Shown piece after piece: positions 5,606-54,806 of a stretch of 64,000 nt of DNA. The stretch comes from Candidatus Polarisedimenticolia bacterium (GTDB taxonomy: Bacteria > Acidobacteriota > Polarisedimenticolia > Gp22-AA2 > AA152). Numbering within the stretch: the first letter of the stretch is position 1; every line of letters starts with the position of its first letter. The DNA lies in assembly GCA_036004685.1 (NCBI GenBank), contig DASYRE010000026.1, positions 45,772 through 109,771 on the forward strand. The letters are read 5' to 3'. The translations under genes and the position numbers were made by a program. The notes under the pieces are model-generated. The model searched no databases, was not told the DNA's origin, and worked only from the letters and a program-made list of their open reading frames with translations.

Positions 5606-6045
<440 letters not shown>

Positions 6046-17836: not shown

Positions 17837-17916
<80 letters not shown>

Positions 17917-18752: not shown

Positions 18753-18829
18753 CGGGCCTGTAGCTCAGATGGATAGAGCAGGGGATTCCTAATCCCCGCG
18801 TCGGGAGTTCAACTCTCTCCAGGCCCACC
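18753..18829 (+). tRNA. tRNA-Arg (anticodon CCU)
   Basis: GGGCCTGTAGCTCAGATGGATAGAGC... Anticodon stem GGGGA/UCCCC with loop UUCCUAA gives anticodon CCU. T-arm GGTTCAACTCT, CCA encoded. 6 nt after the apt stop. Confidence 0.85.
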
Positions 18830-26876: not shown

Positions 26877-27102
26877 AACTTGCCCAGACGCTTCAGATTC
26901 AAGACCCATCCAGATAGCTTTCCTGCTGAGCCTTGAGACGTCCCGGCCCGCGAGGCGATAATCGAGAGCCTCCTCCCCCGCGTCCCTCGACCCCAAACAA
27001 TACCCCCGTCATGCTAGCGGTTGACGTATAGTTCTGGGCAGGATTCCACCATGCCCGCCGTTGCGCTTGCTGAGGCGCCGTCCGTCCTGAGGGGGGAAAA
27101 CC

Positions 27103-35486: not shown

Positions 35487-35549
35487 GCCTTCACACTAAG
35501 CTCCATTGCGACGCTGTTTTGGAGCCGACATTAAGGAGGCAGGTTCCCA

Positions 35550-37469
35550 ATGAGCAAGATTATCGGCATCGACCTAGGCACCACCAACTCGGTGGTGGCC
35601 GTCATTGAAGGAGGGAAACCGGTCGTCATCTCCAACTCCGAGGGCAGCCGGACGACTCCCTCGGTGGTCGCCTTCACCGACAAAGGAGAGCGGTTGGTGG
35701 GCCAGGTGGCCAAGCGACAGGCGGTCACCAACCCGGAGAACACGATCTTCTCGATCAAGCGCTTCATGGGGCGCCGGTTTGACGAGGTGACCGAGGAGAT
35801 GAAGATGGTGCCCTACAAGGTCATCCGCGGCCAGAACGGGGATGCCCGGGTCCAGGTCCGGGACAAGAACTCCTCGCCCCCCGAGATCTCCGCCGCCATC
35901 CTCCAAAAGATGAAGCAGTCCGCCGAAGACTACCTCGGCGAAAAAGTCACCCGGGCGGTGATCACGGTCCCCGCCTACTTCAACGACGCCCAGCGACAGG
36001 CCACCAAGGATGCCGGACAGATCGCCGGTCTCACCGTGGAGCGGATCGTCAACGAGCCGACCGCGGCGGCGCTGGCCTACGGACTCGACAAGAAGAAGAA
36101 CGAAACGATCGCCGTGTACGACTTCGGCGGCGGAACGTTCGACATCTCGATTCTGGAGGTGGGCGAGGGGGTCGTGGAGGTGAAGTCCACCAACGGGGAC
36201 ACGCACCTCGGCGGCGACAACATCGACCATCGGATCATCGACTGGATCGTGGCGGAGTTCAAGAAGGAGCAGGGCATCGATCTCTCGAAGGATCGGATGG
36301 CTCTTCAGCGGCTCAAGGAGGCCGCGGAAAAAGCGAAGATGGAGCTCTCCACGGTGGGGGAGACCGAGATCAACCTCCCGTTCATCACCGCCGACGCTTC
36401 GGGTCCCAAGCACCTGTTGATGAAGCTGACGCGGGCCCGTTTCGAGCAGCTGGCGATGGATCTCTTCGAGCGCTCCTTGCCGCCGTGCAAGCGCGCCCTG
36501 GAGGACGCGGGCCTGAAGCCCGAGAACATCGACGAAGTGGTCCTGGTCGGCGGATCGACCCGGATTCCGAAGATTCAGGAGATCGTGAAGGCCTTCTTCC
36601 GCAAGGAGGAGCTCAACAAGGAGGTCAATCCCGACGAGGTCGTCGCGATCGGCGCCGCCATCCAGGCGGGCGTCCTCGGCGGCGACGTGAAGGACCTGCT
36701 CCTCCTGGACGTCACGCCGCTCTCCCTGGGGATCGAGACTCTGGGAGGAGTCTTCACGCGGCTGATCGAGCGCAACAGCACGATCCCTACGCGTAAGAGC
36801 GAGACCTTCTCGACCGCGGCCGACAATCAGACGAGCGTGGAGGTCCACGTGCTGCAAGGGGAGCGGGAGATGGCGCGCGACAACCGCACCCTCGGCCGCT
36901 TCCATCTCGTCGGAATCCCCTCGGCTCCCCGGGGCGTCCCGCAGATCGAGGTCACGTTCGACATCGACGCCAACGGTATCGTGAACGTCTCCGCCAAGGA
37001 TCTCGGGACGGGACGCGAGCAGAAGATCACGATCACGCACAGCAGCGGCTTGAACAAGGAGGACATCGACAAGATGGTGCGCGAGGCCTCCTCCCACGCC
37101 GACGAGGACAAGAAGAAAAAGGAGGAGGTGGAGGCTAAGAACAAGGCCGACAATCTCGTCTACAGCACCGAGAAGCTCCTGGAGGAGAACAAGGACAAGA
37201 TTCCGCCCGAGGAGGCTTCCCAGGTCCAGGCGGCGGTCGACGATCTCAAGAAGGCGGTGACCGAAGGCGGAGCGGAGGGGATTCAGCGGGCGACCGACGT
37301 CCTCCTGAAGGCCTCGCACAAGATCGCCGATCGGATGTACCAGCAGGCCGCTCCCGGCGCCCGGGAAGGACAGGAGCCGCCGCCCGCCGAGGGCTCCGCG
37401 GAGCCCGAGCGGAAAGAGGGGGACGTGATCGACGCCGAGTACGTGGACGTGGACGAAGGGAAAAAGTAG
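35550..37469 (+). CDS. dnaK: molecular chaperone DnaK (Hsp70)
   Basis: [28 protein letters not shown] signatures. RBS AAGGAGG 10 nt upstream. Confidence 0.95.
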
Positions 37470-37482
37470 CGGCCGCCGCCGC

Positions 37483-37941
37483 ATGGGGGAATCGATGACC
37501 GTCGTGCAGTGGGACCCTCTCCGCGAGCTCCTGGCTCTCAAGGACCGGATGAACAAGATCATCGAGAACGCGATGTCCCGGAGCCAGTACGGGGGCTCCG
37601 GGGACGCCGGCACCTGGTCTCCGGCCGTGGACATCTATGAAACTCCGGAGAAATTCGTCGTGACGGCCGAGCTCCCGGGATTCACCCCCGGGGAGATCGA
37701 CGTCCGGATCTCGGCGAACACCCTCACCCTCCGGGGGGAGCGCAAGCTCGAGAAGGGAATCCAGCAGGAGAATTACCATCGCATCGAGCGCTCCTACGGG
37801 ACATTTCTGAGGAGCTTTCCCCTGCCGGCCGGCGTCAAGGCCTCCGAGGCCCGCGCCGAATACAAGCTGGGCATCCTGCAGATCGAGATGCCCAAGGCGC
37901 GGGAGTCGGGTCCGGAGCAGGTGCGCGTGCCGGTCTCCTGA
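37483..37941 (+). CDS. Hsp20/alpha-crystallin family small heat shock protein
   Basis: Alpha-crystallin domain (WSPAVDIYET...AELPGF...GILQIEMPK). An alternative ATG lies at 37495. Confidence 0.85.
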   Translation: MGESMTVVQWDPLRELLALKDRMNKIIENAMSRSQYGGSGDAGTWSPAVDIYETPEKFVVTAELPGFTPGEIDVRISANTLTLRGERKLEKGIQQENYHRIERSYGTFLRSFPLPAGVKASEARAEYKLGILQIEMPKARESGPEQVRVPVS

Positions 37942-37962
37942 CGACGGCGGGAGGAAAGCTCG

Positions 37963-39072
37963 ATGCCCGCGGTGGACTATTACGAAGTGCTCGGGGTCGG
38001 CCGCAAGGCGCGCCCGGCCGAGATCAAAAAAGCCTACAAGCGCCTCGCGAGAAAGTGCCATCCCGATCTGAATCCGGGCAACCGCACCGCCGAAGAGCAA
38101 TTCAAGCGCATCACCGAGGCTTATGCCGTCCTCTCGGATCCCGAGAAGCGCCGCCGGTACGATCAGGGAGGGCTGGGGGCCGAGGGTTCTCCCTTCCAGG
38201 GCGCCGGGGGAGCCGGCCCTGGAGTCCCCCCCGATTTCGGGGCGGCGGGATTCGGAGGCGGGTTCTCCGACATCTTCGCGGAGATATTCGGCGAGGGGCC
38301 CGCGCCGCGCGAGCGCGAGCCGCGCACCGGAGGGGACCGCGTCTATCCGATGCGGATCGGCTTCTTCGACGCGCTGCGCGGCCTGACGACGACCATCCAG
38401 ATCGAAGGAGAGGAAGCCTGCCCCGTCTGCGCCGGCCTCGGCGTCGTGGCCTCCTCGCGCGCCCGCGTCTGTCCCGACTGTCACGGCACTGGAAAAGTGG
38501 AGCGTTTCGGGGGAAGGATCCGCTTCACTCCCACCTGCCGCCGGTGCGGGGGCAGCGGCCGGCTGATGGAGGAGACGTGCAGCCGCTGCTCGGGGTCGGG
38601 GAAGATCAGCCGCGTCCAGAAGCTGCAGGTGCAGATTCCCCCGGGAGTCGACACCGGGTCCCGGGTTCGCATCGCCGGCAAAGGGGGCGCCGGCGTCCTG
38701 GGCGGCCCGCCCGGCGATCTCTACATCCTGATCCAGGTCGACTCGCATCCTTTCTTCTCCCGCGCCGGAGACCAGATCCTGTGCACCGTCCCCGTGACGT
38801 TCAGCGAGGCGGCGCTCGGATCGAAGGTCGAGGTCCCGACCGTGGACGGGCCGGCCACCATCCGGATCCCCCCCGGAACGCAAAGCGGGCAGAAGCTCCG
38901 CCTGCGGGGCCGCGGCGCGCCGTCCCTGCGAGGCGGAGCGCGGGGCGATCAGATCGTCGAGGTCAAGGTCGTGACGCCCGACGTGCGCGACGAAAAGGCG
39001 AAGACCCTCCTGCGGCAGCTGGCGGAGCTCGATCGAACCGATCTGAGGAGCCATCTCGGGACACGTTCGTAG
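37963..39072 (+). CDS. dnaJ: molecular chaperone DnaJ
   Basis: J-domain with HPD (YYEVLGV...KCHPDLNP), G/F-rich region, and four CxxCxGxG zinc-finger repeats. Confidence 0.85.
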
Positions 39073-39120
39073 TAACATACGGCCCACCGGGCGGCGCCGG
39101 TAGGCGCCGGAAAGGTCGTC

Positions 39121-39504
39121 GTGAAGCGGGACAAGGCCTATTACATGATCAGCGTCGTTTCGAAGCGCTTCGATGTACATCCTCAGACGCTGAGGCTCTA
39201 CGAGCGCGAAGGTCTCCTGAAGCCGAGCCGCACGGAAGGAAACACGCGCCTCTATTCCGATGAGGATTTGAACCGCCTCTCCCGGATCCTGCGCCTCACC
39301 CGCGATCTCGGCGTGAATCTCGCGGGCGTGGAGGTCGTCCTGAACATGCAGGAGGTCATGGACCGGATGGAGCACGAGTTCAACGATCTCCTGGAGTCGC
39401 TGCGCGAGGAGCTGCGCAAGCGGGAAAAAGAAACCCGGACACGGCCCTCTCAGGCCCTCGTCCACGCCCGTCCCGGGCGTGTGATCCCTATCAAGAAGGG
39501 GTGA
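39121..39504 (+). CDS. hspR: MerR-family heat shock repressor HspR
   Basis: YMISVVSKRFDVHPQTLRLYEREGLL matches the HspR HTH. Terminal position in a dnaK-hsp20-dnaJ-hspR operon. Confidence 0.8.
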   Translation: MKRDKAYYMISVVSKRFDVHPQTLRLYEREGLLKPSRTEGNTRLYSDEDLNRLSRILRLTRDLGVNLAGVEVVLNMQEVMDRMEHEFNDLLESLREELRKREKETRTRPSQALVHARPGRVIPIKKG

Positions 39505-39505
39505 G

Positions 39506-40363
39506 ATGGACGAAGAAAACGTAATTCGGAAGCGCGTTTCCTCCGAGACGCTCAAGAAGTACCTTCAGGAGATTTCCCGCCTGGAGCGGATCACGCCCGA
39601 CGAGGAGAAGGTCCTCGGCGATCTCATCCAAGGGGGAGATCGGCAGGCGCTCCAGCGCCTGGTGGAAGCCAATCTCCGGTTCGTCGTGAGCTTCGCCAAG
39701 AAGTACCGCGGCTGCGGCCTGTCGTTCCTCGACCTGATCAACGAGGGGAACATCGGCCTGATCGAGGCCGCCAAGCGCTTCAATCCGAAGAAGAACGTCA
39801 AGTTCATCACCTACGCCGTCTGGTGGGTGCGCCAGGCCATCATCCACGCCCTGTCCGACCACAGCGGGGCGTTCCGGCTTCCCCAGAAGCAGGCCAACCT
39901 GCTGTATCGAATCGGCAAGACGATCTCCCAGCTCACCCTCGAGCTGGAGCGCCATCCGAGTCCCGACGAGATCGCGCGCAAGCTCGACATCCAGGTGGAG
40001 GAGGTGACCAACCTTCTCCAAGTGGCGGACGAAAACGTCTCGCTGTCCACTGTCATCGACGAGGAGCACGACTTCCACCTCTCCGACAAGCTGGAGCAGG
40101 AGCAGATCCCTTCGGCCGACGACACGCTGCTTCGCGATTCGCTGAGGACCCATCTCTCCGCCTGTCTGGACGAGCTGGATCCCAAGGAGGAGAAGGTCCT
40201 GCGCCTGCGCTTCGGGCTGGACGAGGAAGAACCGAAGACCCTGAAGGAAATCGGCGAGATGATGGGCCTGTCGCGCGAGAGAATCCGCCAGATCGAGGCC
40301 CAGGCGCTGGAGAAGCTGAACCGATCCCAGAAGTGCCAGCAGCTCCGCGGCTATCTGAACTAG
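39506..40363 (+). CDS. RNA polymerase sigma factor, sigma-70 family (group-2/3-like, lacks region 1.1)
   Basis: Regions 2.1-2.4 (FITYAVWWVRQAI), 3 and 4.2 (LKEIGEMMGLSRERIRQIEAQALEKL). No RpoH box. 285 aa. Starts 1 nt after the hspR stop. Confidence 0.8.
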   Translation: MDEENVIRKRVSSETLKKYLQEISRLERITPDEEKVLGDLIQGGDRQALQRLVEANLRFVVSFAKKYRGCGLSFLDLINEGNIGLIEAAKRFNPKKNVKFITYAVWWVRQAIIHALSDHSGAFRLPQKQANLLYRIGKTISQLTLELERHPSPDEIARKLDIQVEEVTNLLQVADENVSLSTVIDEEHDFHLSDKLEQEQIPSADDTLLRDSLRTHLSACLDELDPKEEKVLRLRFGLDEEEPKTLKEIGEMMGLSRERIRQIEAQALEKLNRSQKCQQLRGYLN

Positions 40364-40372
40364 GAGGGAGCC

Positions 40373-41104
40373 GTGCCGGCCGCCGCCGCTGACTGTCCCG
40401 AATGCCACGGCGCGGGGTACCGCGTGCTCGAGTCCCCGGACGGCCGGAGCAGCGCCGTCCCGTGCGCCTGCCGCCAGGGGGAGCGCGAGGGAAGCCTGAT
40501 GGACCAGGCGCGCATCCCCCGGCGCTACCACCGCTGCGATTTCGAGAACTTCGACGGCATTTCCCCCTCGCACCGCTCGGCCAAGCAGAAAATCGAGAAG
40601 TACGCCCGCGAATACCCGGCCATGGAGTCGGGGCTGCTGCTCATGGGCCCGCCCGGGGTGGGGAAGACGCACCTCATGGTGGCGCTCATCCGCCACCTGA
40701 TCCATCAAAAAGGGGTCGCCTGCCTGTTCTACGACTTCCAGGATCTCCTCAGGGAGATCCAGAATTCCTACAACCCCGACTCGAAGACTTCGGAGCTGGG
40801 GATTCTCCAGCCGCTGTTCGCCGCCGAGGTCCTGGCGCTGGACGATCTCGGAGCCCGCAAGCCGACGATCTGGGTCGAGGAGACGCTCACCCACATCATC
40901 AGCACCCGCTACAACGACATGAAGACGACGCTGTTTACCACCAACTACCTCGATTCACCGCTGCGCAACGACGATTCGACGCTCACCGATCGTATCGGCG
41001 AAAGAGTGCGATCCCGGCTTCACGAGATGTGCCGGGTCGTCGAGATCTCGGGCAAGGACTACCGCGAGCACGTGAGAAAAGCCGACATCCGCCTGCGTCC
41101 CTGA
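40373..41104 (+). CDS. DnaC/DnaI/IstB-family AAA+ ATPase with N-terminal zinc ribbon (putative helicase loader)
   Basis: CPECHG...CACRQG zinc ribbon. Walker A GPPGVGKTH, Walker B LALDDLG. GTG 40373 with RBS GGAGG. Confidence 0.65.
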   Translation: MPAAAADCPECHGAGYRVLESPDGRSSAVPCACRQGEREGSLMDQARIPRRYHRCDFENFDGISPSHRSAKQKIEKYAREYPAMESGLLLMGPPGVGKTHLMVALIRHLIHQKGVACLFYDFQDLLREIQNSYNPDSKTSELGILQPLFAAEVLALDDLGARKPTIWVEETLTHIISTRYNDMKTTLFTTNYLDSPLRNDDSTLTDRIGERVRSRLHEMCRVVEISGKDYREHVRKADIRLRP

Positions 41105-41195: not shown

Positions 41196-41237
41196 GCGAT
41201 AGTAGTGAGGCTTAGCGTCATCCCCTGGGGAGCGCTC

Positions 41238-42431
41238 GTGGAAAAGTCATCGAAAGTGGTATGGATTTTGGGAGGGGCCCGAACTCCCATGGCCGAGTAC
41301 AACGGCCGCTTCCGCGACATCCCGGAAACGGAGCTCGGCGCCCTGGCCGCGCGGGAAGCCCTGATTCGCGCGGCGATCCCGGCCCACGCCGTCCAGCACG
41401 CCGTTTTCGGCAACGCCCTGCAGACCAGCGGCAACGCCATGTACGGGGCCCGCCACGCGGCCCTGAAGGCCGGCCTTCCCATCGAGGTTCCCGCGTTCAC
41501 CGTCAACCGGCTTTGCGGCTCGGGAATCCAGTCGATTCTCTCCGCGGTCCACCTGATCCGGAACGACGAGGCCGACACCGTCCTGGCGGGCGGCATGGAG
41601 AACCTGAGCCAGGCGCCGCACGTGATTCGCGGCGCCCGCGTCGGATTCCGCCTCGGCGAGGGGAAGCTTGAAGACTCGTTGATGGTCGCCCTGATGGACA
41701 GCCACTGCGGCCTCTACATGGCCCAGACAGCGGAGAAGATCGCCAAGGAGCGCGGGATCAGCCGGGAGGAGCAGGACGCCTTCGCGCTCCGGAGCCAGCG
41801 CCTGGCGGAGGAAGCCTACCGCGCGGGCAGGATGCAGGAGGAGATCGTCCCGGTCAAAGTGCGGGAAGGGCGCTCCGAGATCCTCTTCGCCGAGGATGAT
41901 CACCGGCGGGCCGACACGACCCTCGAGAAGCTCTCCAGGCTCCCGGCGGCGTTCAGCAAGGAAGGAACGGTGACGGCCGGCAACGCCTCGGGAATCGTCG
42001 ACGGGGCGGCGGCGGTAGTCGTCTCTTCGAACCCGCACGCGGGCGACCGCAAGCCCCTGGGGAAGATCGTCGCCTGGGGAATCGCGGGCGTCGAGCCCAG
42101 CATCATGGGAATCGGTCCGGTGCCCGCCACGCGCCAGGCGCTCGAGCGCGCCGGCCTCCGACTTTCGGAAATCGACTTGATCGAGGTGAACGAGGCTTTC
42201 GCGGCGCAATACCTGGCGGTCGAGAAGGACCTGGGTCTGGACCGCGACCGCGTCAACGTGAACGGGGGCGCCATCGCCCTGGGCCATCCACTCGGGGCCA
42301 CCGGCACGCGTCTCGTGCTGACGCTCCTCCTGGAGCTGCGGCGGCGGAACGCGCGCTTCGGCCTCGCGACCGCCTGCATCGGCGGAGGCCAGGGAATCGC
42401 GATCATCGTGGAATCGGCCGGCCGGGGCTGA
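41238..42431 (+). CDS. acetyl-CoA C-acetyltransferase (thiolase II)
   Basis: ARTPMAE.. N-terminus, catalytic Cys region VNRLCGSG, C-terminal GLATACIGGGQGIA. GTG 41238 with RBS GGGGAG chosen within the longer track ORF. Confidence 0.85.
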   Translation: MEKSSKVVWILGGARTPMAEYNGRFRDIPETELGALAAREALIRAAIPAHAVQHAVFGNALQTSGNAMYGARHAALKAGLPIEVPAFTVNRLCGSGIQSILSAVHLIRNDEADTVLAGGMENLSQAPHVIRGARVGFRLGEGKLEDSLMVALMDSHCGLYMAQTAEKIAKERGISREEQDAFALRSQRLAEEAYRAGRMQEEIVPVKVREGRSEILFAEDDHRRADTTLEKLSRLPAAFSKEGTVTAGNASGIVDGAAAVVVSSNPHAGDRKPLGKIVAWGIAGVEPSIMGIGPVPATRQALERAGLRLSEIDLIEVNEAFAAQYLAVEKDLGLDRDRVNVNGGAIALGHPLGATGTRLVLTLLLELRRRNARFGLATACIGGGQGIAIIVESAGRG

Positions 42432-42484
42432 CCCCTCAAACTCATCATCAGGCGGCCCCCGGGACCGGGCTGCGGGGAGAGGCG

Positions 42485-43372
42485 ATGACAATCCGCACCG
42501 TGGGAGTCCTGGGCGCCGGTCTGATGGGATCGGGAATCGCCCAGGTTTCGGCGCAGGCCGGATACCCGACGACGGTCCTGGAGATTTCCCAGGATCTGGT
42601 GGACCGAGGGCTCAAGCGGATCGAGGGGTTCCTCCGGAGCGGCGTCGAAAAGGGGAAGATCGCCCCCGAGGTCCAGGCGAAGACGCTGGCGCTTTTGAAG
42701 GGCGCCACGCGGATGGAGGATCTCGCCGACTGCGATTTGATCGTCGAGGCCGTCAGCGAGAACCTGGAGGTCAAGCGCCAGACTTTTTCCCGCCTGGACA
42801 AAATCTGCAAGCCCAAGGCGATCTTCGCGAGCAACACCTCCTCCCTTTCGATCACCGAAATGATGGGCGCCACCTCGAGGCCGGACCGTTTCATGGGCCT
42901 CCATTTCTTCAATCCGGTCCCCTTGATGAAGCTGGTCGAGGTAGTGCGCACCGTGGTGACCGGCGAGGAGGTCGAAGCCACCGCGCTCGCCTTCGTGCGG
43001 TCGCTCGGCAAGACCCCTATCCGGACGTCGGACCGAACCGGCTTCGTCGTCAACCGCCTGCTCGTGCCTTTCCTGCTGGACGCGATCCGGGCGCTCGAAT
43101 CGGGAGTCGGGACGATCGAGGAGATCGACGCCGGGATGAAGCTGGGGTGCGGCCATCCGATGGGACCCTTCACGCTGCTCGACTTCGTCGGGTTGGACAC
43201 CACTTACTCGATCGCGGGAATCATGTTCGACGAGTTCAAGGAGAGCCGCTTCGCCGCGCCGCCGCTGCTCAAGCGCATGGTCCTGGCCGGCATGCACGGA
43301 AGAAAATCCGGAAAGGGTTTCTACGACTACGCCAAGGAGCCGCCCGTCCCCCAGAACCATCTGGCGTCGTGA
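42485..43372 (+). CDS. 3-hydroxybutyryl-CoA / 3-hydroxyacyl-CoA dehydrogenase
   Basis: NAD-binding VGVLGAGLMGSGIAQV and the Hbd C-terminal domain. Confidence 0.85.
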   Translation: MTIRTVGVLGAGLMGSGIAQVSAQAGYPTTVLEISQDLVDRGLKRIEGFLRSGVEKGKIAPEVQAKTLALLKGATRMEDLADCDLIVEAVSENLEVKRQTFSRLDKICKPKAIFASNTSSLSITEMMGATSRPDRFMGLHFFNPVPLMKLVEVVRTVVTGEEVEATALAFVRSLGKTPIRTSDRTGFVVNRLLVPFLLDAIRALESGVGTIEEIDAGMKLGCGHPMGPFTLLDFVGLDTTYSIAGIMFDEFKESRFAAPPLLKRMVLAGMHGRKSGKGFYDYAKEPPVPQNHLAS

Positions 43373-43400
43373 GCGCCCCGCCCGCGAATCAGGGAGAGCC

Positions 43401-44183
43401 ATGAGCTACCAAAACCTTGTGGTGCAAGTTCAGGATCGGATCGGCCGGATCACGGTGAACCGTCCCGAGAAGCTCAACGCGCTGAACCGGGCCACGCTCG
43501 AGGAGATCGACGCCGCGTTCGCGGCCATGGGCTCGGATCCGGCGGTTGGGGCGATCCTTCTGACCGGAGCGGGGGCGAAAGCCTTCATCGCCGGCGCCGA
43601 CATCAACGAGCTGGCCCGGCAAACCCCCGTGGAGGGGCGCGAGTACACGCTGTTCGGACAGGGCGTCCTGAACCGCATCGAGTCGCTCGGCAAGCCGGTC
43701 CTGGCGGCGGTGAACGGGTACGCGCTGGGAGGCGGCTGCGAAATCGCCTTGGCCTGCACGCTCCGTTTCGCGTCAAGCGCCGCCCGCTTCGGCCAGCCCG
43801 AGGTGAATCTCGGGATCATCCCCGGGTACGGCGGAACCCAGCGTCTGGCCCGGCTGATCGGCCGGGGCAGGGCGCAGGAGATGATCCTGACCGGAGAGAT
43901 GATCGATGCCGCGGAAGCGCACCGGATCGGGCTCGTCAACGCGGTCGTGGCGCCGGAGGAACTGATCCCGCGGACCGAGTCGGTCGCCCGGACGATCCTG
44001 TCGAAAGGGCCTCTCGCGGTCCGCTACGCGCTCGACGCCGTGCACCGGGGGCTCGACATGCCGGCGCGCGAAGGGCTGGCCTACGAGGCGGCCCTTTTCA
44101 GCGTGCTCTGCGCCTCGGAAGACATGAAGGAGGGGACGAAAGCGTTCCTGGAGAAGCGCAAAGCGGAGTTTCGGGGACGCTGA
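43401..44183 (+). CDS. enoyl-CoA hydratase (crotonase)
   Basis: Crotonase fold (AAVNGYALGGGCEIALACTLRFAS). Confidence 0.85.
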   Translation: MSYQNLVVQVQDRIGRITVNRPEKLNALNRATLEEIDAAFAAMGSDPAVGAILLTGAGAKAFIAGADINELARQTPVEGREYTLFGQGVLNRIESLGKPVLAAVNGYALGGGCEIALACTLRFASSAARFGQPEVNLGIIPGYGGTQRLARLIGRGRAQEMILTGEMIDAAEAHRIGLVNAVVAPEELIPRTESVARTILSKGPLAVRYALDAVHRGLDMPAREGLAYEAALFSVLCASEDMKEGTKAFLEKRKAEFRGR

Positions 44184-44280: not shown

Positions 44281-46104
44281 GTGTCCGAACTGGCGCCGGA
44301 ACGAGTCAATCTCCGCCCGCTGAGGCTGCTTACGGCCCTGCGCGTCGTGGTCGCGGCGCTGCTCGTGGCGTTCGCGATCGTCATCTTCCTGAGCTTCGGC
44401 AAGAAAGAGGAGGATCCGGTCCGGATCCAGATCTCGCAGCCCGCCGGAAGCTCCGACGAGAAAGTGGTCGACCTGTCCGACAAGTTCTACATCACCGGCA
44501 CCAAGGGGGGATCGGAATCTTTCAAGATGCGCGCCGACCAGGTGACAGGGTTCGTGGGCGACAAGAAGACGCTGAAGGGGGTTCACCTCGAGGTGGTCGG
44601 GGAGAACGGAGAACGGCTGAACCTCGCGGGGAACGAGGGCCAGTTCGACATGGCCGACAAGAGGGCCCACCTCTCCGGCGACGTTCAGGTGGCCGGAAAG
44701 AACGGCTTCAAGCTCACCACCTCCAGTCTGTACTTCGACGGCCAGCGCGACGTCATCTTCACCTCCGACGAGGTCTTCTTCGAGAATGCGGGGCTGGAGG
44801 GGCGCGGCCGGGGGCTCAACTACCTGACCCGGGAGCAGACGCTGAAGATTTCCGCCGAAGTGCACGTCACGCTCCGGCCCGAGACCGCCGACGCCTCCCC
44901 GGTCGAGATCACCAGCGGCGACATGGCGCTCGGCCTGCGGGAGAACGACGTCGTCTTCAACGACTCGGTCGTGATGACCCGCGGCCCCGACGTCTTTTCC
45001 GGGAACTATCTCAAGGCGACGCTCGATTCCTCCCGCCACCGCATCCTCTCGGTGAAAGGCTACGGGCAGGTCTCGGCGAATTTCCTGTCGGGAAAGGGGA
45101 ATGCCCGGGCGAGCGTCGACGCCGACACGCTGGAGGCGAGCTTGACGCCCGACGGCAAGACGGTGGAGAAAGTCACCGCCCGGGGGAACTGCCGGCTCCG
45201 CCGGGAAGGGATGACCGCCACCAGCGACTCGCTGCTCGCCGAGGCGGCCGCCGACAAGATCTCCTTGCGGGGGGAGCCGGTCCTGCTCGACGCGCGCAGC
45301 CGCATCGCGGCGGAAGAGATCGATCTGCATCCCGGCGAGCGGGGATTCGAGGCGCGCGGCGACGTGAAGACGTCGTTTCAGCCCTCCTCGCCGGGCTCGC
45401 CCGCTTCGAGCCCGTCCTTCTTCAGCCCCAAGGAGTCGGTCTATTTCCAATCGGCCCGCCTGACGGTGGAGGACGGAGGCAACCTGGCGCGGTATTCCGG
45501 AAGCGCCCGCGGCTGGCAGGGGGATGATTCCCTGCAGGCCGAGGAGATCTTCCTGCACTTCGCCGACCGCCGGATGAGCGCGTATCGCAACGTCCTGTGC
45601 CGCTTCGCGTCGAGCCCGGGAGCGTCCCCGGCCGCCGAAAAGGCTCCGCCTTCCTCGCCCACGATCATCGTCGCTTCCTCCATGGACTACGCCGAATCGG
45701 AGGGGACCGTTCATTTCCGGGACGCGGTGAAGATGACGGGCCGTGACACGGTCGTCCTGGCGGAGCGGATGCACGTCAGCCTCACCCCGGCGGGGGAAGG
45801 GCGGCGAAAGGTCGCGCGGGTCCTGGCGGACAGCATGGTGCGCTTCACGCACCTGACGAATTCCGGGACCTCGGACCACCTCGTCTACACGCCCGACGAC
45901 GAAATGGTGGAGATGCGTCAGGACGCCGGCCTCGCGGAAGTCGTGGATCACACCAACGGCCGGATCCTGCGCGGCAAGACGCTGACCTTCGACACGAAGG
46001 GGAACCGCGTTCTCACCGAAACCACCGAGGGCGGTCGCACCTGGATCACCCTCAATCCCAAGGACAAGGACACGCGCGCCCTTGAATCGAAGATTGGACA
46101 TTGA
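44281..46104 (+). CDS. LptC/LptA-like (OstA family) lipopolysaccharide transport protein, long form
   Basis: N-terminal TM anchor (LLTALRVVVAALLVAFAIVIFL) then repeated OstA-like beta-jellyroll segments. Position immediately upstream of lptB-rpoN-hpf. Confidence 0.6.
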   Translation: MSELAPERVNLRPLRLLTALRVVVAALLVAFAIVIFLSFGKKEEDPVRIQISQPAGSSDEKVVDLSDKFYITGTKGGSESFKMRADQVTGFVGDKKTLKGVHLEVVGENGERLNLAGNEGQFDMADKRAHLSGDVQVAGKNGFKLTTSSLYFDGQRDVIFTSDEVFFENAGLEGRGRGLNYLTREQTLKISAEVHVTLRPETADASPVEITSGDMALGLRENDVVFNDSVVMTRGPDVFSGNYLKATLDSSRHRILSVKGYGQVSANFLSGKGNARASVDADTLEASLTPDGKTVEKVTARGNCRLRREGMTATSDSLLAEAAADKISLRGEPVLLDARSRIAAEEIDLHPGERGFEARGDVKTSFQPSSPGSPASSPSFFSPKESVYFQSARLTVEDGGNLARYSGSARGWQGDDSLQAEEIFLHFADRRMSAYRNVLCRFASSPGASPAAEKAPPSSPTIIVASSMDYAESEGTVHFRDAVKMTGRDTVVLAERMHVSLTPAGEGRRKVARVLADSMVRFTHLTNSGTSDHLVYTPDDEMVEMRQDAGLAEVVDHTNGRILRGKTLTFDTKGNRVLTETTEGGRTWITLNPKDKDTRALESKIGH

Positions 46105-46810
46105 AGGGATCAGCAAAGCCTATCGCGGACGCCCGGTGGTCCGGGCGGTTTCACTCTCCATCCAGAGCGGAGAGGTCGTCGGGCTCCTGGGCCCGAACGG
46201 CGCGGGCAAGACGACCACCTTCTATTGCATCCTCGGGCTGGTCACGCCGGACGAAGGGAAGATCCTCCTCAACGGCCACGACATCACGCGCCTCCCGATG
46301 TACCTCCGCGCCCGCGAGGGGATCAGCTACCTGCCCCAGGAAGCGAGCATCTTTCGGAAGATGACGGTCGAGGAGAACCTGATGGCCATCCTGGAGACGC
46401 TCGATCTCAGCTCCGGAGAGCTCAAGGAGCGGGCCCGGAACATCCTGGAGGAGCTGAAGATCTCGCACCTGGCCCGTTCTCCGGCCTACGCGCTTTCGGG
46501 AGGCGAGAGGCGCCGCGCCGAAATCGCGCGGGCGCTCGTCCTGTCGCCGTCCTTCATCCTGCTCGACGAGCCCTTCTCGGGAATCGATCCCCTCGCCGTG
46601 GCGGACATCCAGCGGATCATCCAGCAGCTCCGGCAGAAGGGGATCGGCATCCTGATCACCGATCACAACGTCATCGAGACGCTGCGCATCACCGATCGCG
46701 CCTACATCATCGCCGCCGGCGAGATCTTCCGGAAGGGCGTGCCCGACGAGCTCGCCGCCGACGCCCGCGTGCGGGAGATCTACCTGGGCGACAACTTCCG
46801 GCTGAACTGA
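46082..46810 (+). CDS. lptB: LPS export ABC transporter ATP-binding protein LptB
   Basis: Nearly collinear with E. coli LptB (GLLGPNGAGKTTTFY, LSGGERRR, ILLDEPF). TTG starts possible at 46082 or 46094. Confidence 0.85.
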   Translation: MNRRLDIEGISKAYRGRPVVRAVSLSIQSGEVVGLLGPNGAGKTTTFYCILGLVTPDEGKILLNGHDITRLPMYLRAREGISYLPQEASIFRKMTVEENLMAILETLDLSSGELKERARNILEELKISHLARSPAYALSGGERRRAEIARALVLSPSFILLDEPFSGIDPLAVADIQRIIQQLRQKGIGILITDHNVIETLRITDRAYIIAAGEIFRKGVPDELAADARVREIYLGDNFRLN

Positions 46811-46818
46811 GGAGCGCG

Positions 46819-48264
46819 ATGGCCCTCGAACAGAAGCTCAACATGCGGCTGGCGACGAAGCTGGTGATGACGCCGTCGCTGCAGCAGGCCATCAAACTGC
46901 TCCAGATGTCGAAGCTGGAGCTGGTGGAGGAGATCAATCAGGAGCTCACGCTCAACCCGGTGCTCGAGGAGGCGGGCGAGACCCGCGAGGAGCAGGCCCC
47001 CGAGCCGGAGGTCCGCACCGACGATCCCGGCCCGGCCCCCGAGCCCGCCCCGGACGGCGTGAAGGACTCCTTTCAGGAGATCGACTACCAGTCCTACTTC
47101 CAGGACTACATGGACGCCGGTTATTCGCCACGCGCCCCGACCGAGGAGATCGAGGCGCCGCCGCTGGAGAACATCCTCACCCGCCCGCAGAGCCTGTCCG
47201 ACCACCTGCTCTGGCAGCTGTCGATGAACGTGCCGGACGGGCTCGAGCAGGAGATCGGGCGGGCGATCATCGGGAATCTGGACGAGAACGGCTACCTCAA
47301 AGCCTCCCTGGAGGAAATCGAGTCCATGGGGAGCTTTCCTCCCGAGAAGGTGGCCGAAGTGCTCGCGAAGATCCAGGAATTCGATCCCACCGGGGTGGCC
47401 GCGCGGGATCTCCAGGAATGCCTTCTGATCCAGATTCGCGCCTTCGACATGGAGGAGACGCCCCAGGAGACGATCATCCGCGATCACATGGATCTTCTCC
47501 AGGGCCGCAAGTTCCGGGAGCTCGCCCAGGCGCTCAAGTGCTCTCCCGAGGAGGTCCAGGAGTACCTGGAGATCATCCGCGCCCTCGACCCGCGTCCTGG
47601 GAAGCGTTACGATTCCGATCGTTCCACGTACGTGATCCCCGACGTGTTCGTGTACAAGGTGGACAAGGGTTACACCATCGTCCTGAACGAAGAAGGGCTG
47701 CCGCGGCTCCGGGTGAGCTCGTTCTACCGCCGGATGGTCGACAAGGGGAACACGGACGTCACGCGCGAAGCCCGCGACTACGTGCGGGAGAAGCTCAGCT
47801 CCGCGCTGCGGCTGATCAAGAGCCTGGAGGAGCGGCAGCGAACGATCTACAAGGTCGCCCGCAGCATCGTGAGCTTCCAGCGGAAGTTCCTGGACTACGG
47901 GTTCGAATACCTGCGGCCGCTGATTCTCAAGGACGTGGCCGAAGACATCCAGATGCATGAATCCACCGTGAGTCGGGTCGTGAACAACAAGTACATGCAC
48001 ACCCCGCGCGGCGTCTTCGAGATGAGGTTCTTCTTCCACTCCGGCATCGCCTCCGCCCAGGGCGAGGACGTCTCCTCGCTGACGGTGAAGGAGAGGATCA
48101 AGAAGCTGGTGTCGGAGGAGAACGCCGGCCGCCCTCTTTCCGATTCGGCGCTGGCGAAGCTGCTCGGCGACGAAGGACTGCAGATCGCGCGCCGGACTGT
48201 GGCGAAGTACCGTGAAGAGCTGCGGATCCCATCCTCGAACGACCGCCGTCAGGGCTTTCGTTGA
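46819..48264 (+). CDS. rpoN: RNA polymerase sigma-54 factor
   Basis: Region I (MALEQKLNMRLATKLVMTPSLQQAIKLLQMS), acidic region II, and RpoN box ARRTVAKYRE at the C-terminus. Confidence 0.9.
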   Translation: MALEQKLNMRLATKLVMTPSLQQAIKLLQMSKLELVEEINQELTLNPVLEEAGETREEQAPEPEVRTDDPGPAPEPAPDGVKDSFQEIDYQSYFQDYMDAGYSPRAPTEEIEAPPLENILTRPQSLSDHLLWQLSMNVPDGLEQEIGRAIIGNLDENGYLKASLEEIESMGSFPPEKVAEVLAKIQEFDPTGVAARDLQECLLIQIRAFDMEETPQETIIRDHMDLLQGRKFRELAQALKCSPEEVQEYLEIIRALDPRPGKRYDSDRSTYVIPDVFVYKVDKGYTIVLNEEGLPRLRVSSFYRRMVDKGNTDVTREARDYVREKLSSALRLIKSLEERQRTIYKVARSIVSFQRKFLDYGFEYLRPLILKDVAEDIQMHESTVSRVVNNKYMHTPRGVFEMRFFFHSGIASAQGEDVSSLTVKERIKKLVSEENAGRPLSDSALAKLLGDEGLQIARRTVAKYREELRIPSSNDRRQGFR

Positions 48265-48278
48265 AGCGTGGAGAAGCC

Positions 48279-48812
48279 ATGAGAATCCACATGACGGGAA
48301 GGCAGATCGAAGTGACTCAGGCGCTCAAGCAGGCGGCCGAGGCGCGGCTGTCCCGCCTCGAGAAGTATCTGGACGGCGGCAGCGAAGCGCACGTGATCCT
48401 GACGGTCGAAAAGCGCCGTCACCGCGTCGAGATCGTGGTCCACGACCGGCATGCGACGCTCTCCGCGGTCGGGGAGACCAAGGACATGTACACGTCGCTG
48501 AGCCTGGTCGGGGATCGCCTCGAACGCCAGGCGAAGAAGCACCGCGAGAAAATCAAGGGCGAGAGGAAGCGGGACGGTAAGCGGACCTCGCCGCGCCGCC
48601 TCCAGACGCCGGCGCCGGAGAGCGCCGACGGCCCGCAGGTGATCCGGGTCAGCGTCCGGCCGGTGAAGCCGATGTCGATCGAGGAGGCGCTCCTCCAGGT
48701 GCGCGGCACGGAGAAGGAGTTCCTGGTCTTCCGCAACGCCTCGTCCCGCCAGATCTCGGTCCTCTACCGGAGGAAGGACGGGAATTACGGGCTGATCGAG
48801 CCGGAGGCCTGA
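48279..48812 (+). CDS. hpf: ribosome hibernation promoting factor (long form)
   Basis: MRIHMTGRQIEVTQALK... YfiA/HPF N-domain plus a C-terminal dimerisation domain. RBS GGAGAAG. Confidence 0.85.
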   Translation: MRIHMTGRQIEVTQALKQAAEARLSRLEKYLDGGSEAHVILTVEKRRHRVEIVVHDRHATLSAVGETKDMYTSLSLVGDRLERQAKKHREKIKGERKRDGKRTSPRRLQTPAPESADGPQVIRVSVRPVKPMSIEEALLQVRGTEKEFLVFRNASSRQISVLYRRKDGNYGLIEPEA

Positions 48813-48847: not shown

Positions 48848-48877
48848 TTGACACTGATTCCGGGCCGTTGCTATGCT
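48848..48877 (+). promoter_or_regulatory. sigma70-type promoter upstream of acyl-CoA dehydrogenase/mutase cluster: TTGACA-N17/18-(C)TATGCT
   Basis: -35 TTGACA at 48848-48853. -10 CTATGC/TATGCT at 48871-48877. Followed by a ~130-nt GC-rich leader before ATG 49010. Confidence 0.45.
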
Positions 48878-51322: not shown

Positions 51323-53005
51323 ATGAAGCGAGACTCCGGCGTCCTGACGCCCCGCCGCACCCGCCGGGAATGGGAGACCGAGACGCTCCGCGACTCCCTG
51401 AAGAGATCCCCGGAGAGGAAGCCGGCGTTCACGACGATTTCCGGCGTGCCGATCGAGCGCCTGTACACCGCCGAGGACCTGGAGCATTGGGATCCGGAGG
51501 AGAAGCTCGGACAGCCCGGCGTTTTTCCCTTCACGCGCGGGCCCTACCCGACGATGTACCGCGGCAGGCTCTGGACTATGCGGCAGTTCTCCGGCTTCGG
51601 GACCCCCCAGGACACGAACCGGCGCTACCGCTACCTGCTCTCGCACGGACAGACCGGACTCTCGGTCGCTTTCGACATGCCGACCCTGATGGGCCTGGAC
51701 TCGGACGATCCCCGCTCCCTCGGCGAGGTGGGACGGGAGGGGGTGGCGATCGACACCCTCTCCGACATGGAGGCGCTGTTCGCGGCCATTCCGCTGGCGC
51801 GCGTCTCCACCTCGATGACCATCAACGCGCCCGCCGCGGTCCTGCTGGCGATGTACCTGGCGGTCGCCAAGAAGCAGGGAGCCGACTGGGGAGCGCTCCA
51901 AGGGACCGTCCAGAACGACATCCTGAAGGAATACATCGCCCAGAAGGAGTGGATTTTTCCCCCGCGCCCGTCGATCCGGATCATCGTGGACATGATCGCC
52001 TTCTGCACCGAACGGGTGCCCAAATGGAACACGATCTCGATCAGCGGGTACCACATCCGGGAGGCCGGCTCCACCGCGGCCCAGGAGCTGGCCTTCACCC
52101 TGGCCGACGGAATCGGATACGTCCAGGCCTGCCGCGAGGCGGGACTCGCCGTCGACTCGTTCGCGCCGCGCCTGTCATTCTTCTGGAACGCCCACTCCGA
52201 CTTCTTCGAGGAGATCGCCAAGTACCGCGCCGCGCGCCGCATCTGGGCGAACGTGATGCGGGACCGCTTCGGCGCGAAGGATCCACGCTCCTGGACGCTC
52301 AGGACCCACGCGCAGACGGCGGGGTGCTCGCTCACCGCCCAGCAGCCGCAGAACAACATCGTGCGGGTGGCGCTCCAGGCGCTCTCGGCAGTCCTCGGAG
52401 GCACGCAGTCGCTGCACACCAACTCCATGGACGAGACGCTGGGGCTGCCCACCGAGCAGGCCGTGACGATCGCCTTGAGGACGCAGCAGATCCTCGCCGA
52501 GGAGACGGGCGTGGCGAACACCATCGATCCTCTCGCCGGGTCCTACTTCATGGAGTCCCTCACCGATCGGATCGAGCGGGAGGCGCTGGATCTGATCGCC
52601 ACGATCGACGGCATGGGAGGAATCGTCGCGGCGATCGAGCAGGGATTTCCACAGCGCGAGATCGCCGAGGCTTCCTTCCGCTATCAGCGCGAGCTGGAGC
52701 GGGGCGAGAAGGTCATGGTGGGAGTGAACCGGTACACCGAGGGCGCCGCCTCCGACATCGAAATCCTGAAGATCCCGCCCTCCGTGGAGCCCCGCCAGAT
52801 TCGCGCTCTCCAAAGCGTCCGCAAGAGGCGCGACGGGCGCCCGCATCGCCGGGCGCTCGCGGCCCTGGTGGAGGCTGCCCGGGGCGGCACGAACCTGCTC
52901 CCTCCGATCCTGGACGCCGTCGAGGCCTATGCGTCGGTCGGCGAGATCTGTGCCGCGCTCAAGGGCGTCTTCGGGGCGTATCGCGAGGAAAAAACCTACT
53001 TCTGA
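51323..53005 (+). CDS. acyl-CoA mutase large (substrate-binding) subunit, split type; signature residues suggest isobutyryl-CoA mutase IcmA
   Basis: MCM-family TIM-barrel domain ([10 protein letters not shown]...LSVAFDMPT...). Phe in RQFSGF and Gln in [11 protein letters not shown] sit at the positions that are Tyr/Arg in methylmalonyl-CoA mutases and Phe/Gln in ICM (residue identities recalled from memory). Confidence 0.8.
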
Positions 53006-53016
53006 AGGACTCGGAC

Positions 53017-53526
53017 ATGACCGAAAGCGCGCCGCGGCCGGGCAAGCTGCGGCTCCTGGTCGGCAAGGTGGGCCTGGATGGACACGATCGAGGGGTGAAG
53101 ATCATCGCCCGCGCCTTGCGCGACGCGGGACATGAAGTGATCTACACGGGCCTGCACCAGACGCCGGAAATGGTGGTGGCGACGGCCGTCCAGGAGGACG
53201 TGGACGCCGTTTCCCTGAGCATTCTCAGCGGCGCCCACAAGACGCTCTTTCCGCGCGTGATCGATCTCCTGAGGAAGGCCCGGTTCCCGGTTCCCGTCTT
53301 CGGCGGCGGAATCATCCCGGAGGAGGATTTCGCGTTTCTGAAACGGCGCGGCGTCAAGGCGATCTTCACGCCCGGGGCCTCGACTCAGGAGGTGCTCGAC
53401 TGGGTTGCCCGTAACATCCAGCCGCGCGCTTCCACGCCCGCCCCCGGCGCGCCGCCCCGCGCGCCGCGCAAAAAAAGAGGGAAAGGCCCGGCGCGGGCGG
53501 GATCACCCAAGCGCGGCCGGCCCTGA
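53017..53526 (+). CDS. acyl-CoA mutase small cobalamin-binding subunit
   Basis: B12-binding Rossmann domain with DxHxxG ([13 protein letters not shown]). Basic low-complexity C-terminal tail. ATG 53017 chosen within the track ORF. Confidence 0.8.
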
Positions 53527-53552: not shown

Positions 53553-53582
53553 TTGACACCATCGAAACTCATCTGCTAAGTT
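53553..53582 (+). promoter_or_regulatory. sigma70-type promoter upstream of receiver gene: TTGACA-N17-CTAAGT(T)
   Basis: -35 TTGACA at 53553-53558. -10 CTAAGT/TAAGTT at 53576-53582. Palindrome GAGCCGGCTC at 53583-53592 sits at the predicted transcription start. Confidence 0.45.
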
Positions 53583-53663: not shown

Positions 53664-54806
53664 ATGCCAAAGAAGATCCTCCTCGCGGACGACAGCATCA
53701 CCATCCAAAAGGTCGTGGAGCTGACCTTCTCGGAAGGGGATTATCAGGTTTTCAGCGTCGGAAACGGCAGCCAGGCGCTGCGCAAGATCCACGAGGTCCG
53801 GCCCGACATCGCCCTTCTCGACGTGATCATGCCGGAGGCCAACGGCTACGAAGTCTGTGAAAAGGTGAAGCGGAACCCGGAGACCTCCTGGATCCCCGTG
53901 CTTCTCCTCACCGGAACGTTCGAGCCCTTCGATCGGAAGCGCGCCGACGCCGCGGGGGCGAACGGGCACCTGACGAAGCCTTTCGAGTCCCAGATGCTGA
54001 TCTCGAAAGTGGAGGAGCTGATCGCCAGCTCCCGCCATCCCATCATCGAGCCGCAGAGACTGGGCCGGATGGAGATCGTCGCCGGAGGAATCACGCGCCT
54101 GGAGGGGGAGGATCCATCGATGGCCGAGGAACGGCAGCGCGAGGCCGATCCCCGCGAAGTTCCTGCCCGCGAAGCCGATCCTACCCGCGAAGCCCATGAT
54201 CCCCGCCAAGTCGAGGCTGCCCGCGAACTCGAGGCTGAAAGTGCCCGCGAAGTCGAGGATGACGAAGAGGTCGAGCTGACCCGCCAGAGCATCGTGCCGG
54301 ACCGCTTCGACATTGGGAGCGACGAGACGAGCCCCGCAGCCGAGGGTCCCCGGACGGTGCGCATCTCCTCGCCATGGAGAGGGGCCGCCCCGGAGGCCGC
54401 TCCCCCGCAGGATCCCGTCGCGGAAAGCGCCCCGGAAGGCACGCCCGAGACCTGGGACGAGCTGGCGAGCGATCTCGCCACGGCCTCCGTCTCGGAGTTC
54501 CCGCGCGAATCCTCGCGGCCGGAAGCCGTCACACCTCTCGTCCCTCTCTCCGGAAGCGCGGTCCCCGTGCCTTCCTCCGAGGCGCCTGCCCGCGGGGAAT
54601 CCGCGGCTCCCGGGGAGCCGGCCGAGCGCGTCGCTCCGCTTCCTTTGACGAGCGACGAGATGGATCGCCTCGCGGCGAGAATCTTGCAGCAGATGTCGGA
54701 CAAGGTGATTCGCGAGATCGCCTGGGAGATCATTCCCGAGCTGGCCGAGAGCCTGATCAAGCAGCGCATTCGCGAGCTCGAGGAGAAGATCGCCCGGGAG
54801 AACTGA
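53664..54806 (+). CDS. CheY-like response regulator receiver domain protein with long acidic/Pro-rich disordered C-terminal extension
   Basis: Receiver motifs (LLADDS, phospho-acceptor D in LLDVIMP, ...LTKPF). The 250-aa tail has EADPREVPAREADPTREAHDPRQVEAARELEAE repeats. Confidence 0.75.
   Translation: MPKKILLADDSITIQKVVELTFSEGDYQVFSVGNGSQALRKIHEVRPDIALLDVIMPEANGYEVCEKVKRNPETSWIPVLLLTGTFEPFDRKRADAAGANGHLTKPFESQMLISKVEELIASSRHPIIEPQRLGRMEIVAGGITRLEGEDPSMAEERQREADPREVPAREADPTREAHDPRQVEAARELEAESAREVEDDEEVELTRQSIVPDRFDIGSDETSPAAEGPRTVRISSPWRGAAPEAAPPQDPVAESAPEGTPETWDELASDLATASVSEFPRESSRPEAVTPLVPLSGSAVPVPSSEAPARGESAAPGEPAERVAPLPLTSDEMDRLAARILQQMSDKVIREIAWEIIPELAESLIKQRIRELEEKIAREN

Follow-up and report, generated by a model that had tools for sequence, protein, structure and literature searches.

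Two adjacent open reading frames (ORFs) on the forward strand of contig DASYRE010000026.1, from a Candidatus Polarisedimenticolia bacterium (Acidobacteriota), encode proteins of 560 and 169 amino acids at 51323..53005 and 53017..53526 of the window, i.e., the 64,000-nucleotide stretch analyzed here. As judged by profile, structure and motif matches, they are the large and small subunits of a split adenosylcobalamin (AdoCbl) acyl-CoA mutase. The pair probably constitutes an isobutyryl-CoA mutase (ICM; EC 5.4.99.13) interconverting butyryl-CoA and isobutyryl-CoA, the substrate being assigned with good, though not full, confidence from active-site residues and genomic context. Both ORFs, together with the Phe of an RQFSGF motif and a Gln in the large subunit, had been reported in a preliminary description of this DNA and are present as claimed. 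The GC content of the window is about 67%, and the closest protein matches come from Acidobacteriota metagenome-assembled genomes (MAGs), mostly named Candidatus Polarisedimenticolia.

In profile scans, the large subunit reached 782 bits against TIGR00641 (cut-off 304) and the small subunit 148 bits against TIGR00640, while PF01642 is annotated on all close homologues of the large subunit. The methylmalonyl-CoA mutase (MCM) equivalog NF006944 gave 649 bits with the large subunit, under its cut-off of 876, and the IcmF model NF045497 matched both subunits partially, far short of its threshold (347 vs. 1500). For both subunits the best solved structure is that of 2-hydroxyisobutyryl-CoA mutase (HCM; 4R3U), with 606 bits for HcmA and 129 bits for HcmB (4R3U_C); the IcmF structure 4XC6 was the 8th-ranked structure match of the large subunit (275 bits). 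No G domain was found in either mutase ORF, which are two separate ORFs and not an IcmF fusion. The small subunit, whose gene begins 11 bp past that of the large subunit, displays the B12-binding motifs D21-G-H23-D-R-G26 (DxHxxG), S68-x-L70 (SxL), and G97-G98 (GG), and these columns do not vary when HcmB and the small subunits of split MCMs are aligned with it. The enzyme would be a heteromer in which the 560-aa subunit provides the substrate barrel and the 169-aa subunit binds B12 via the DxHxxG histidine.

Table 1. Coordinates of the mutase genes and of associated features in the window
Feature	Position	Strand	Basis
Acetyl-CoA acetyltransferase (thiolase)	41205..42431	+	Pfam Thiolase_N/C; syntenic in relatives; putative pathway partner, separate unit
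3-Hydroxybutyryl-CoA dehydrogenase (hbd)	42485..43372	+	Pfam 3HCDH_N/3HCDH; putative pathway partner
Enoyl-CoA hydratase (crotonase, crt)	43401..44183	+	Pfam ECH_1; putative pathway partner
Sigma-70-like promoter candidate, TTGACA-18 nt-TATGCT with TG extension	48848..48877	+	Consensus match in the 198-bp hpf-ACAD1 gap
ACAD1, short-chain/butyryl-CoA-type acyl-CoA dehydrogenase, 380 aa	49010..50152	+	Pfam Acyl-CoA_dh_N/M/1; PDB matches
ACAD2, SCAD/Bcd-type acyl-CoA dehydrogenase, 382 aa	50161..51309	+	PDB matches; paralogue of ACAD1
Mutase large (substrate-binding) subunit, IcmA-like, 560 aa	51323..53005	+	TIGR00641; PDB alignments; signature columns (F89, A116, Q207, Y243, H244)
Mutase small subunit, IcmB-like B12-binding domain, residues 1-137	53017..53427	+	TIGR00640; PDB HcmB 4R3U_C; motifs
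Small-subunit C-terminal extension, 32 aa plus stop codon, Pro/Arg/Lys/Gly/Ala-rich	53428..53526	+	Comparison with relatives

Active-site signature and its distribution

The Phe of RQFSGF is residue 89 and the Gln residue 207 of the large subunit. The preliminary description had placed them at the positions that are Tyr and Arg in MCM, and residue-level phmmer alignments to three MCM structures, from human (2XIJ), M. tuberculosis (6OXC), and P. shermanii (1REQ), agree: F89 is aligned with the Tyr in RQYAGF, and the Arg in FMVRNTY is the counterpart of Q207. The MCM numbering used here (Tyr89/Arg207) was obtained by index counting along the 1REQ/5REQ alignment. Q207 also aligns with the Arg of ARGTY in split MCMs and F89 with a Phe in IcmA-type proteins from Streptomyces; Tyr243 and His244 are kept. 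With Phe89 and Gln207 in place of the Tyr and Arg by which MCM holds the carboxylate of methylmalonyl-CoA, the pocket would be suited to an uncharged C4 acyl group. The Phe/Gln pair is regarded as the hallmark of ICM, and both the numbering of HcmA and the sites of Tyr and Arg in the MCM structures are consistent with this.

Regarding other mutases, the HCM markers are not present, the query having F89 and A116 where HcmA from M. petroleiphilum has I90 and D117 (its Gln being Q208); these HcmA residues agree with the published numbering. As the defining residues of both MCM and HCM were tested and not found, either function appears unlikely. The pattern of Xaut_5043, the reported large subunit of pivalyl-CoA mutase (PCM), with Leu at position 89 and an Asn replacing Gln207, is not present either. 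The query does have GREGV at residues 137-141, a sequence also found in HCM and in a few other Phe/Gln proteins; the usual reading in Phe/Gln proteins is G[KH]CGV.

The motifs WTMRQF[AS]GFG and KEYIAQKEW are kept in all 120 of the 120 closest homologues (69-99% identical). A broader sample was drawn from a HMMER search over 1.84 billion cluster representatives, the nearest 150 of which (50%-identity clusters) were aligned with 8 reference sequences. At positions 89/116/207/244, 68 of these sequences read Tyr/Ala/Arg/His and 20 read Phe/Ala/Gln/His, with several further fragments compatible with the latter; the HCM pattern Ile/Asp/Gln/His was found in 4, and the remainder display various other combinations. 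Residues 89 and 207 co-vary, and exceptions to the pairings Tyr/Arg and Phe/Gln are very few. On the evidence of these alignments, the Phe/Gln signature is not a product of chance.

Some representatives depart from the common types. Three metagenomic ones of the Phe/Gln type (P0174, P0167, and P0203) carry the barrel followed by the B12 domain in a single chain with no G domain, a domain order that is MCM-like and the reverse of IcmF. An IcmF-like nature was considered for them and rejected, because the barrel precedes the B12 domain in these fusions and human MCM is the solved structure that they match best; they look like a third architecture of ICM-type enzymes. A spread sample of plasmid matches contained no annotated IcmF. 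Many others, among them P0133, P0137, P0138, P0140, P0153, P0168, P0183, P0216, and P0252, are full-length and depart at the specificity positions from Tyr/Arg, Phe/Gln, and Ile/Asp/Gln alike, reading, e.g., Val/Val/Gly, Ile/Val/Pro, or Gln/Asp/Gly, some also being without His244. These are probably mutases of uncharacterized specificity or non-catalytic paralogues.

When species-representative genomes were scanned for DNA encoding W-T-x-R-x-F-[AS]-G-[FY]-G, at least 120 loci were obtained, each a mutase gene. Among the matches listed, the Phe-type loci form two subtypes. The 'TWTIRQFAGFGNA' subtype is found in Streptomyces, Actinoplanes, Catenulispora, and other actinomycetes, with ORFs of about 566-570 codons and no small subunit inside the 8-kb loci. 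It fits icmA of S. cinnamonensis, which encodes 566 aa and is unlinked to icmB. In four actinomycete loci (L015, L053, L079, and L109), the IcmA-type gene lies a few kb from meaB-thiolase-mce, L109 being without a thiolase match, and the small subunit is encoded elsewhere. The 'LWTMRQ/MFAGFG' subtype, of which the query is a member, is found in Vicinamibacteria, Gemmatimonadota, Thermus/Deinococcus, Chloroflexota, and Solirubrobacterales as well as in Rokubacteria, Armatimonadota, Planctomycetota, Myxococcota, and the haloarchaeon Natrialba. Overall, split Phe/Gln mutases with 'LWTMRQF' span Acidobacteriota, Gemmatimonadota, Deinococcota, Chloroflexota, Solirubrobacterales, haloarchaea, and others.

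The dehydrogenase-mutase operon and its neighbors

The mutase pair is preceded by two acyl-CoA dehydrogenase (ACAD) genes, and the gaps between ACAD1, ACAD2, and the large- and small-subunit genes are 8, 13, and 11 bp; the mutase genes are probably co-transcribed with these two dehydrogenases. The gap between hpf and ACAD1 contains one promoter-type site where 0.3 would be expected, from which the ACAD-ACAD-mutase unit may be transcribed. The two dehydrogenases are 56% identical to each other, and their description as butyryl-CoA-type is borne out by the structure matches. Butyryl-CoA dehydrogenase Bcd (5OL2) gave 439 bits with ACAD1 and 390 with ACAD2, and the rat short-chain acyl-CoA dehydrogenase (SCAD) 415 and 384 bits (409-415 for ACAD1 against rat and human SCAD), whereas the isobutyryl-CoA dehydrogenase ACAD8/IBD gave a lower 280-281 bits with the two.

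The order ACAD-large subunit-small subunit is kept in relatives whose mutase is 72-97% identical. ACAD2 is present in the closer relatives only, and the single ACAD of more distant ones is orthologous to ACAD1 (63-66% identity), so that the conserved core consists of ACAD1 and the two mutase genes. In relatives, this core belongs to a syntenic block which runs from genes for a sigma factor and an IstB-like ATPase through thiolase, hbd, crt, lptC/A, lptB, rpoN, and hpf to ACAD, the large and small mutase subunits, a response regulator, valyl-tRNA synthetase (ValRS), nadC, birA, and coaX. The immediate neighbors of the mutase pair are the ACADs, the response regulator, and ValRS.

Thiolase, hbd, and crt, which had been invoked as part of the same route, are indeed present (41205..44183), though not contiguous with the operon: they form a separate unit 5 kb upstream within the housekeeping block, with a lptC/A-like gene, lptB, rpoN, and hpf (44281..48812) in between. 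With regard to propionate metabolism, mce was not found in the window and neither propionyl-CoA carboxylase nor methylmalonyl-CoA decarboxylase nearby, while no 2-hydroxyisobutyrate (2-HIBA)-CoA ligase was found in the mutase cluster. Neither etfAB nor a branched-chain keto-acid dehydrogenase was found among the scanned ORFs, all of which lie past the first 15 kb of the window.

Neighboring genes were also counted in randomly offset 8-kb windows around the 120 listed Phe-type loci, which come from many phyla. A small subunit was found in 35 of the 120, MeaB in 19, an ACAD in 13, a thiolase in 12, crt in 8, and hbd in 5. Complete ACAD-thiolase-hbd-crt-mutase arrays are among them, e.g., in a Planctomycetaceae MAG, and Natrialba has crt-ACAD-hbd-mutase. 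Members of the subtype to which the query belongs frequently have a small subunit, MeaB, or β-oxidation genes beside them. This repeated occurrence of C4 β-oxidation genes beside Phe/Gln mutases in unrelated phyla supports a link to butyryl-CoA.

In its most probable role, the mutase would convert isobutyryl-CoA derived from valine or isobutyrate to butyryl-CoA and so supply straight-chain β-oxidation; butyryl-CoA would be oxidized by an ACAD to crotonyl-CoA, hydrated by crt to 3-hydroxybutyryl-CoA, oxidized by hbd to acetoacetyl-CoA, and cleaved by thiolase into two acetyl-CoA. The direction of the pathway is likewise presumed, the reverse, fermentative one being an alternative, and a MeaB-type chaperone would be encoded elsewhere in the genome. 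Syntrophic isobutyrate degraders reportedly use an ICM cluster ahead of β-oxidation (PMC5017805). An ICM fits both the conserved ACAD-mutase operon and its C4-type neighbors, and the conserved operon together with the recurrent β-oxidation neighbors supports the earlier proposal of a butyryl-CoA/isobutyryl-CoA route rather than propionate metabolism.

Placement among known mutases and alternative substrates

IcmA/IcmB was assayed in S. cinnamonensis and is represented here by presumed Streptomyces orthologues; the actinobacterial large subunits compared are from Streptomyces flavofungini, S. nanshensis, and others (L033, L019, L084, L031, and L074). Like these, the query has separate large and small subunits and F/A/Q/H at positions 89/116/207/244, as well as the Q-K-E motif, L122, R32, and I307. 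Unlike the query, the actinobacterial type reads 'TWTIRQFAGFGNA', has 14 private substitutions and no small subunit in the 8-kb loci, whereas the small subunit of the query adjoins 11 bp downstream. With HcmA/HcmB (PDB 4R3U; the M. petroleiphilum plasmid locus L002), the query shares the split architecture, the Gln at 207/208, the K-E motif, and GREGV, but it has Phe89/Ala116 instead of Ile90/Asp117, and none of the CoA ligase, MeaB, and adenosyltransferase genes carried by hcm clusters is present in its locus.

Split MCMs from Ilyobacter polytropus, Brevibacillus laterosporus, and Streptomyces plasmids (L007, L006, and L003) have the same two-subunit layout and size, are 56-60% identical to the query, and have identical Y243/H244 and B12 motifs. 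They differ from it by Tyr89, Arg207, and 'ARGTY', and adjoin genes for mce, carboxyltransferase/decarboxylase, and MeaB. Such split Tyr/Arg enzymes being equally similar (58-60% for Ilyobacter and Brevibacillus), the split architecture, which had been put forward as a sign of IcmA/IcmB, is not diagnostic. IcmF (4XC6) has the same predicted reaction, and NF045497 matches both query subunits in part, but IcmF is a single B12-GTPase-barrel polypeptide. Finally, Xaut_5043/5044 of X. autotrophicus Py2, reportedly an isovaleryl-/pivalyl-CoA mutase, PCM (Kitanishi et al. 2015), is also a split mutase for an uncharged acyl-CoA; unlike the query, Xaut_5043 has RQLIGL and IANHQF at the signature sites and MeaB adjacent, with 37-41% identity.

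In neighbor-joining (NJ) trees, all Phe/Gln proteins fall in one clade with the two HcmA sequences nested in it, sister to the split Tyr/Arg MCMs. Seven derived columns (R32, F89, L122, Q207, K208, E209, and I307) unite the group of the query with the IcmA type of actinobacteria; they are mostly found in HCM too and are essentially missing from the 21 Tyr/Arg proteins. Over 515 aligned columns, the query is 57-67% identical to other members of the 'LWTMRQF' subtype, 57-58% to the Streptomyces IcmA type, and about 51-53% to HcmA. The query probably belongs to the Phe/Gln (ICM-type) lineage: a grouping with bona fide MCMs was checked for, and the trees instead place it with Phe/Gln proteins and HCM, at 24% support and backed by the seven columns.

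Several points weigh against assigning the pair to ICM. The IcmA type is no closer to the query than are the split Tyr/Arg MCMs of Brevibacillus and Ilyobacter (58-60%), so that raw similarity is not decisive, and the bootstrap for a single Gln207 clade is low (24%) after removal of fragmentary sequences (with fragmentary metagenomic representatives, supports are near zero). A split-MCM profile scores the query at 861 bits and an actinobacterial IcmA-type profile at 722, the lower score being due in part to the 14 private substitutions of that clade; this comparison was rejected as a sign of MCM membership since the two profiles are not equally broad and the result is accounted for by the columns that discriminate between the groups. 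The orthology of the Streptomyces sequences to the S. cinnamonensis IcmA that was assayed is presumed. As for the locus, neither a MeaB-type GTPase (P-loop search, tblastn), for which the preliminary description had advised a check, nor an adenosyltransferase or a B12 (cobalamin) riboswitch was found in the 64-kb window. In addition, the closeness of thiolase-hbd-crt to the operon may be historical rather than functional, as both lie inside a conserved housekeeping block.

The main alternative, though a rather unlikely one, is a mutase for another uncharged acyl-CoA, i.e., isovaleryl-/pivalyl-CoA or another C5 compound, a hydroxyacyl-CoA, or an undescribed substrate, in which case the Phe/Gln pair would indicate only the lack of a carboxylate. 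No member of the 'WTMRQF' subgroup is known to have been assayed, the query is as distant from the Streptomyces IcmA type as from split MCMs, HcmA is its top solved structure with GREGV in common, and many family representatives have unexplained residue combinations at the marker positions; IcmF reportedly turns over isovaleryl-/pivalyl-CoA slowly (Cracan & Banerjee 2012). However, the F/A/Q/H markers are identical to those of the Streptomyces IcmA type, the Ile90/Asp117 of HCM and the Leu/Asn of PCM are both missing, and the SCAD/Bcd-like ACADs, hbd, crt, and thiolase are C4-type neighbors. A genuine MCM serving propionate or succinate metabolism is what the databases suggest, all close homologues being named 'methylmalonyl-CoA mutase (family protein / N-terminal domain)'. 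There are strong matches to TIGR00641 and TIGR00640, although these are subfamily-domain models, and the 58-60% identity is to split MCMs that have mce neighbors. This function is nonetheless highly improbable given that Tyr89 and Arg207 are both replaced, that all 120 close homologues carry the replacement, that NF006944 stays below its cut-off, and that no mce, propionyl-CoA carboxylase, or methylmalonyl-CoA decarboxylase lies nearby.

Equally improbable is an enzyme of the HCM/RCM type, a 2-hydroxyisobutyryl-CoA mutase that would use 3-hydroxybutyryl-CoA supplied by the nearby hbd and crt. HcmA/HcmB are the top solved-structure matches of both subunits, and Q207-K-E and GREGV are in common, but HcmA Ile90/Asp117 are Phe/Ala in the query, the identity to HcmA is low (about 51-53%), and the cluster has no 2-HIBA-CoA ligase or MeaB, unlike the hcm clusters of M. 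petroleiphilum and X. autotrophicus. It is conceivable, though we consider it a long shot, that the 'LWTMRQF' split mutases are a distinct sister group to the Streptomyces IcmA type with a different substrate range or partner needs. Just as speculatively, such a group might act on a C5 or hydroxy-acyl substrate, or load its cofactor independently of a chaperone where no MeaB is linked, and the basic tail of the small subunit could, at a similarly small chance, be a lineage-specific interaction module and not neutral read-through.

An assignment to ICM would correct a systematic under-annotation of stand-alone ICM genes. These are named "methylmalonyl-CoA mutase family protein" because an NCBIfam equivalog exists for IcmF while none matched here for stand-alone ICM, and it is known that ICM-type enzymes tend to be misannotated as MCM (PMC7764203). 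If true, the assignment would mean that an uncultured sediment/soil class of Acidobacteriota routes valine or isobutyrate carbon via butyryl-CoA to acetyl-CoA, a B12-dependent alternative to the propionyl-CoA route that bears on metabolic models and cobamide demand. The re-annotation is ordinary though well supported, with no new class of chemistry; the subgroup of the query is widespread, within a known kind of enzyme. Being so widely distributed and repeatedly linked to β-oxidation genes, the Phe/Gln group is a reasonable target for one biochemical characterization.

The basic tail and other features of the window

The basic, Pro/Arg/Lys-rich tail noticed earlier on the small subunit is real in the sequence and unusual, although it is lineage-specific and apparently unconstrained. 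It occupies about residues 138-169, past the B12 domain, and is rich in Pro, Arg, Lys, Gly, and Ala. Tails are present in five relatives, whose small subunits measure 165-179 aa; those of the four with a mutase 79-97% identical have about 30 residues rich in R, K, P, G, S, and A and align poorly with one another, whereas in relatives with a mutase 72-74% identical the small subunit stops at 137-138 aa. Relative to the closest relative (L009), tail DNA (53428-53523) is 72% identical, with no indels and equally across the three codon positions, compared with 94% for the core coding DNA (86% at third codon positions) and 93% for the downstream intergenic DNA. The tail thus diverges about twice as fast as core third positions (28% vs. 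14%), as would be expected if mutations accumulate locally, or if selection is relaxed or diversifying, in this GC-rich stretch of low complexity. At such GC content, an open frame of 30 codons is estimated to arise by chance in roughly 50% of cases. A conserved functional motif was considered and rejected as unsupported, since the sequence is unconserved and diverges faster than third codon positions. The tail looks like a translated, compositionally biased, lineage-specific extension with little or no sequence constraint.

Downstream of the mutase genes, a conserved promoter-like TTGACA-18-TAAGTT (53553..53582) lies ahead of the response regulator gene (53664-54806, +). The receiver domain of this protein covers residues 5-116, the other approximately 260 aa being of low complexity, acidic and rich in Pro, Glu, and Ala, except for a short C-terminal helix that is conserved. 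The gene is preceded by two CheW genes in the more distant relatives. Upstream, the 607-aa ORF at 44281-46104 (+) combines an LptC domain (27-196) and an LptA/LptD_N domain (463-574) through a long linker, and the gene is fused in all relatives examined. Further upstream, the stretch 35535-41104 (+) holds a heat-shock cluster (dnaK, hsp20, dnaJ, and a MerR/HspR-like regulator) and, after it, genes for a sigma-70 family factor and for an AAA ATPase of the IstB/DnaC type; the latter is syntenic in relatives and therefore not part of an IS21 element.

HprK-like and RapZ-like genes are clustered with rpoN in many proteobacteria. In the window, P-loop motifs at 555 and 1079 (~42-1912, +), which are putatively HprK-like and RapZ-like, belong to ORFs about 45 kb from rpoN-hpf (46819-48812). 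A 1200-aa protein with multiple Kelch β-propeller repeats and MopE-type putative metal-binding motifs is encoded at 27091-30696 (+), and a tyrosine recombinase with Phage_integrase and SAM-like N domains, probably of the XerC/D type, at 24600-25805 (+). Three tRNA genes are located at 5624-5697, 17840-17913, and 18754-18827.

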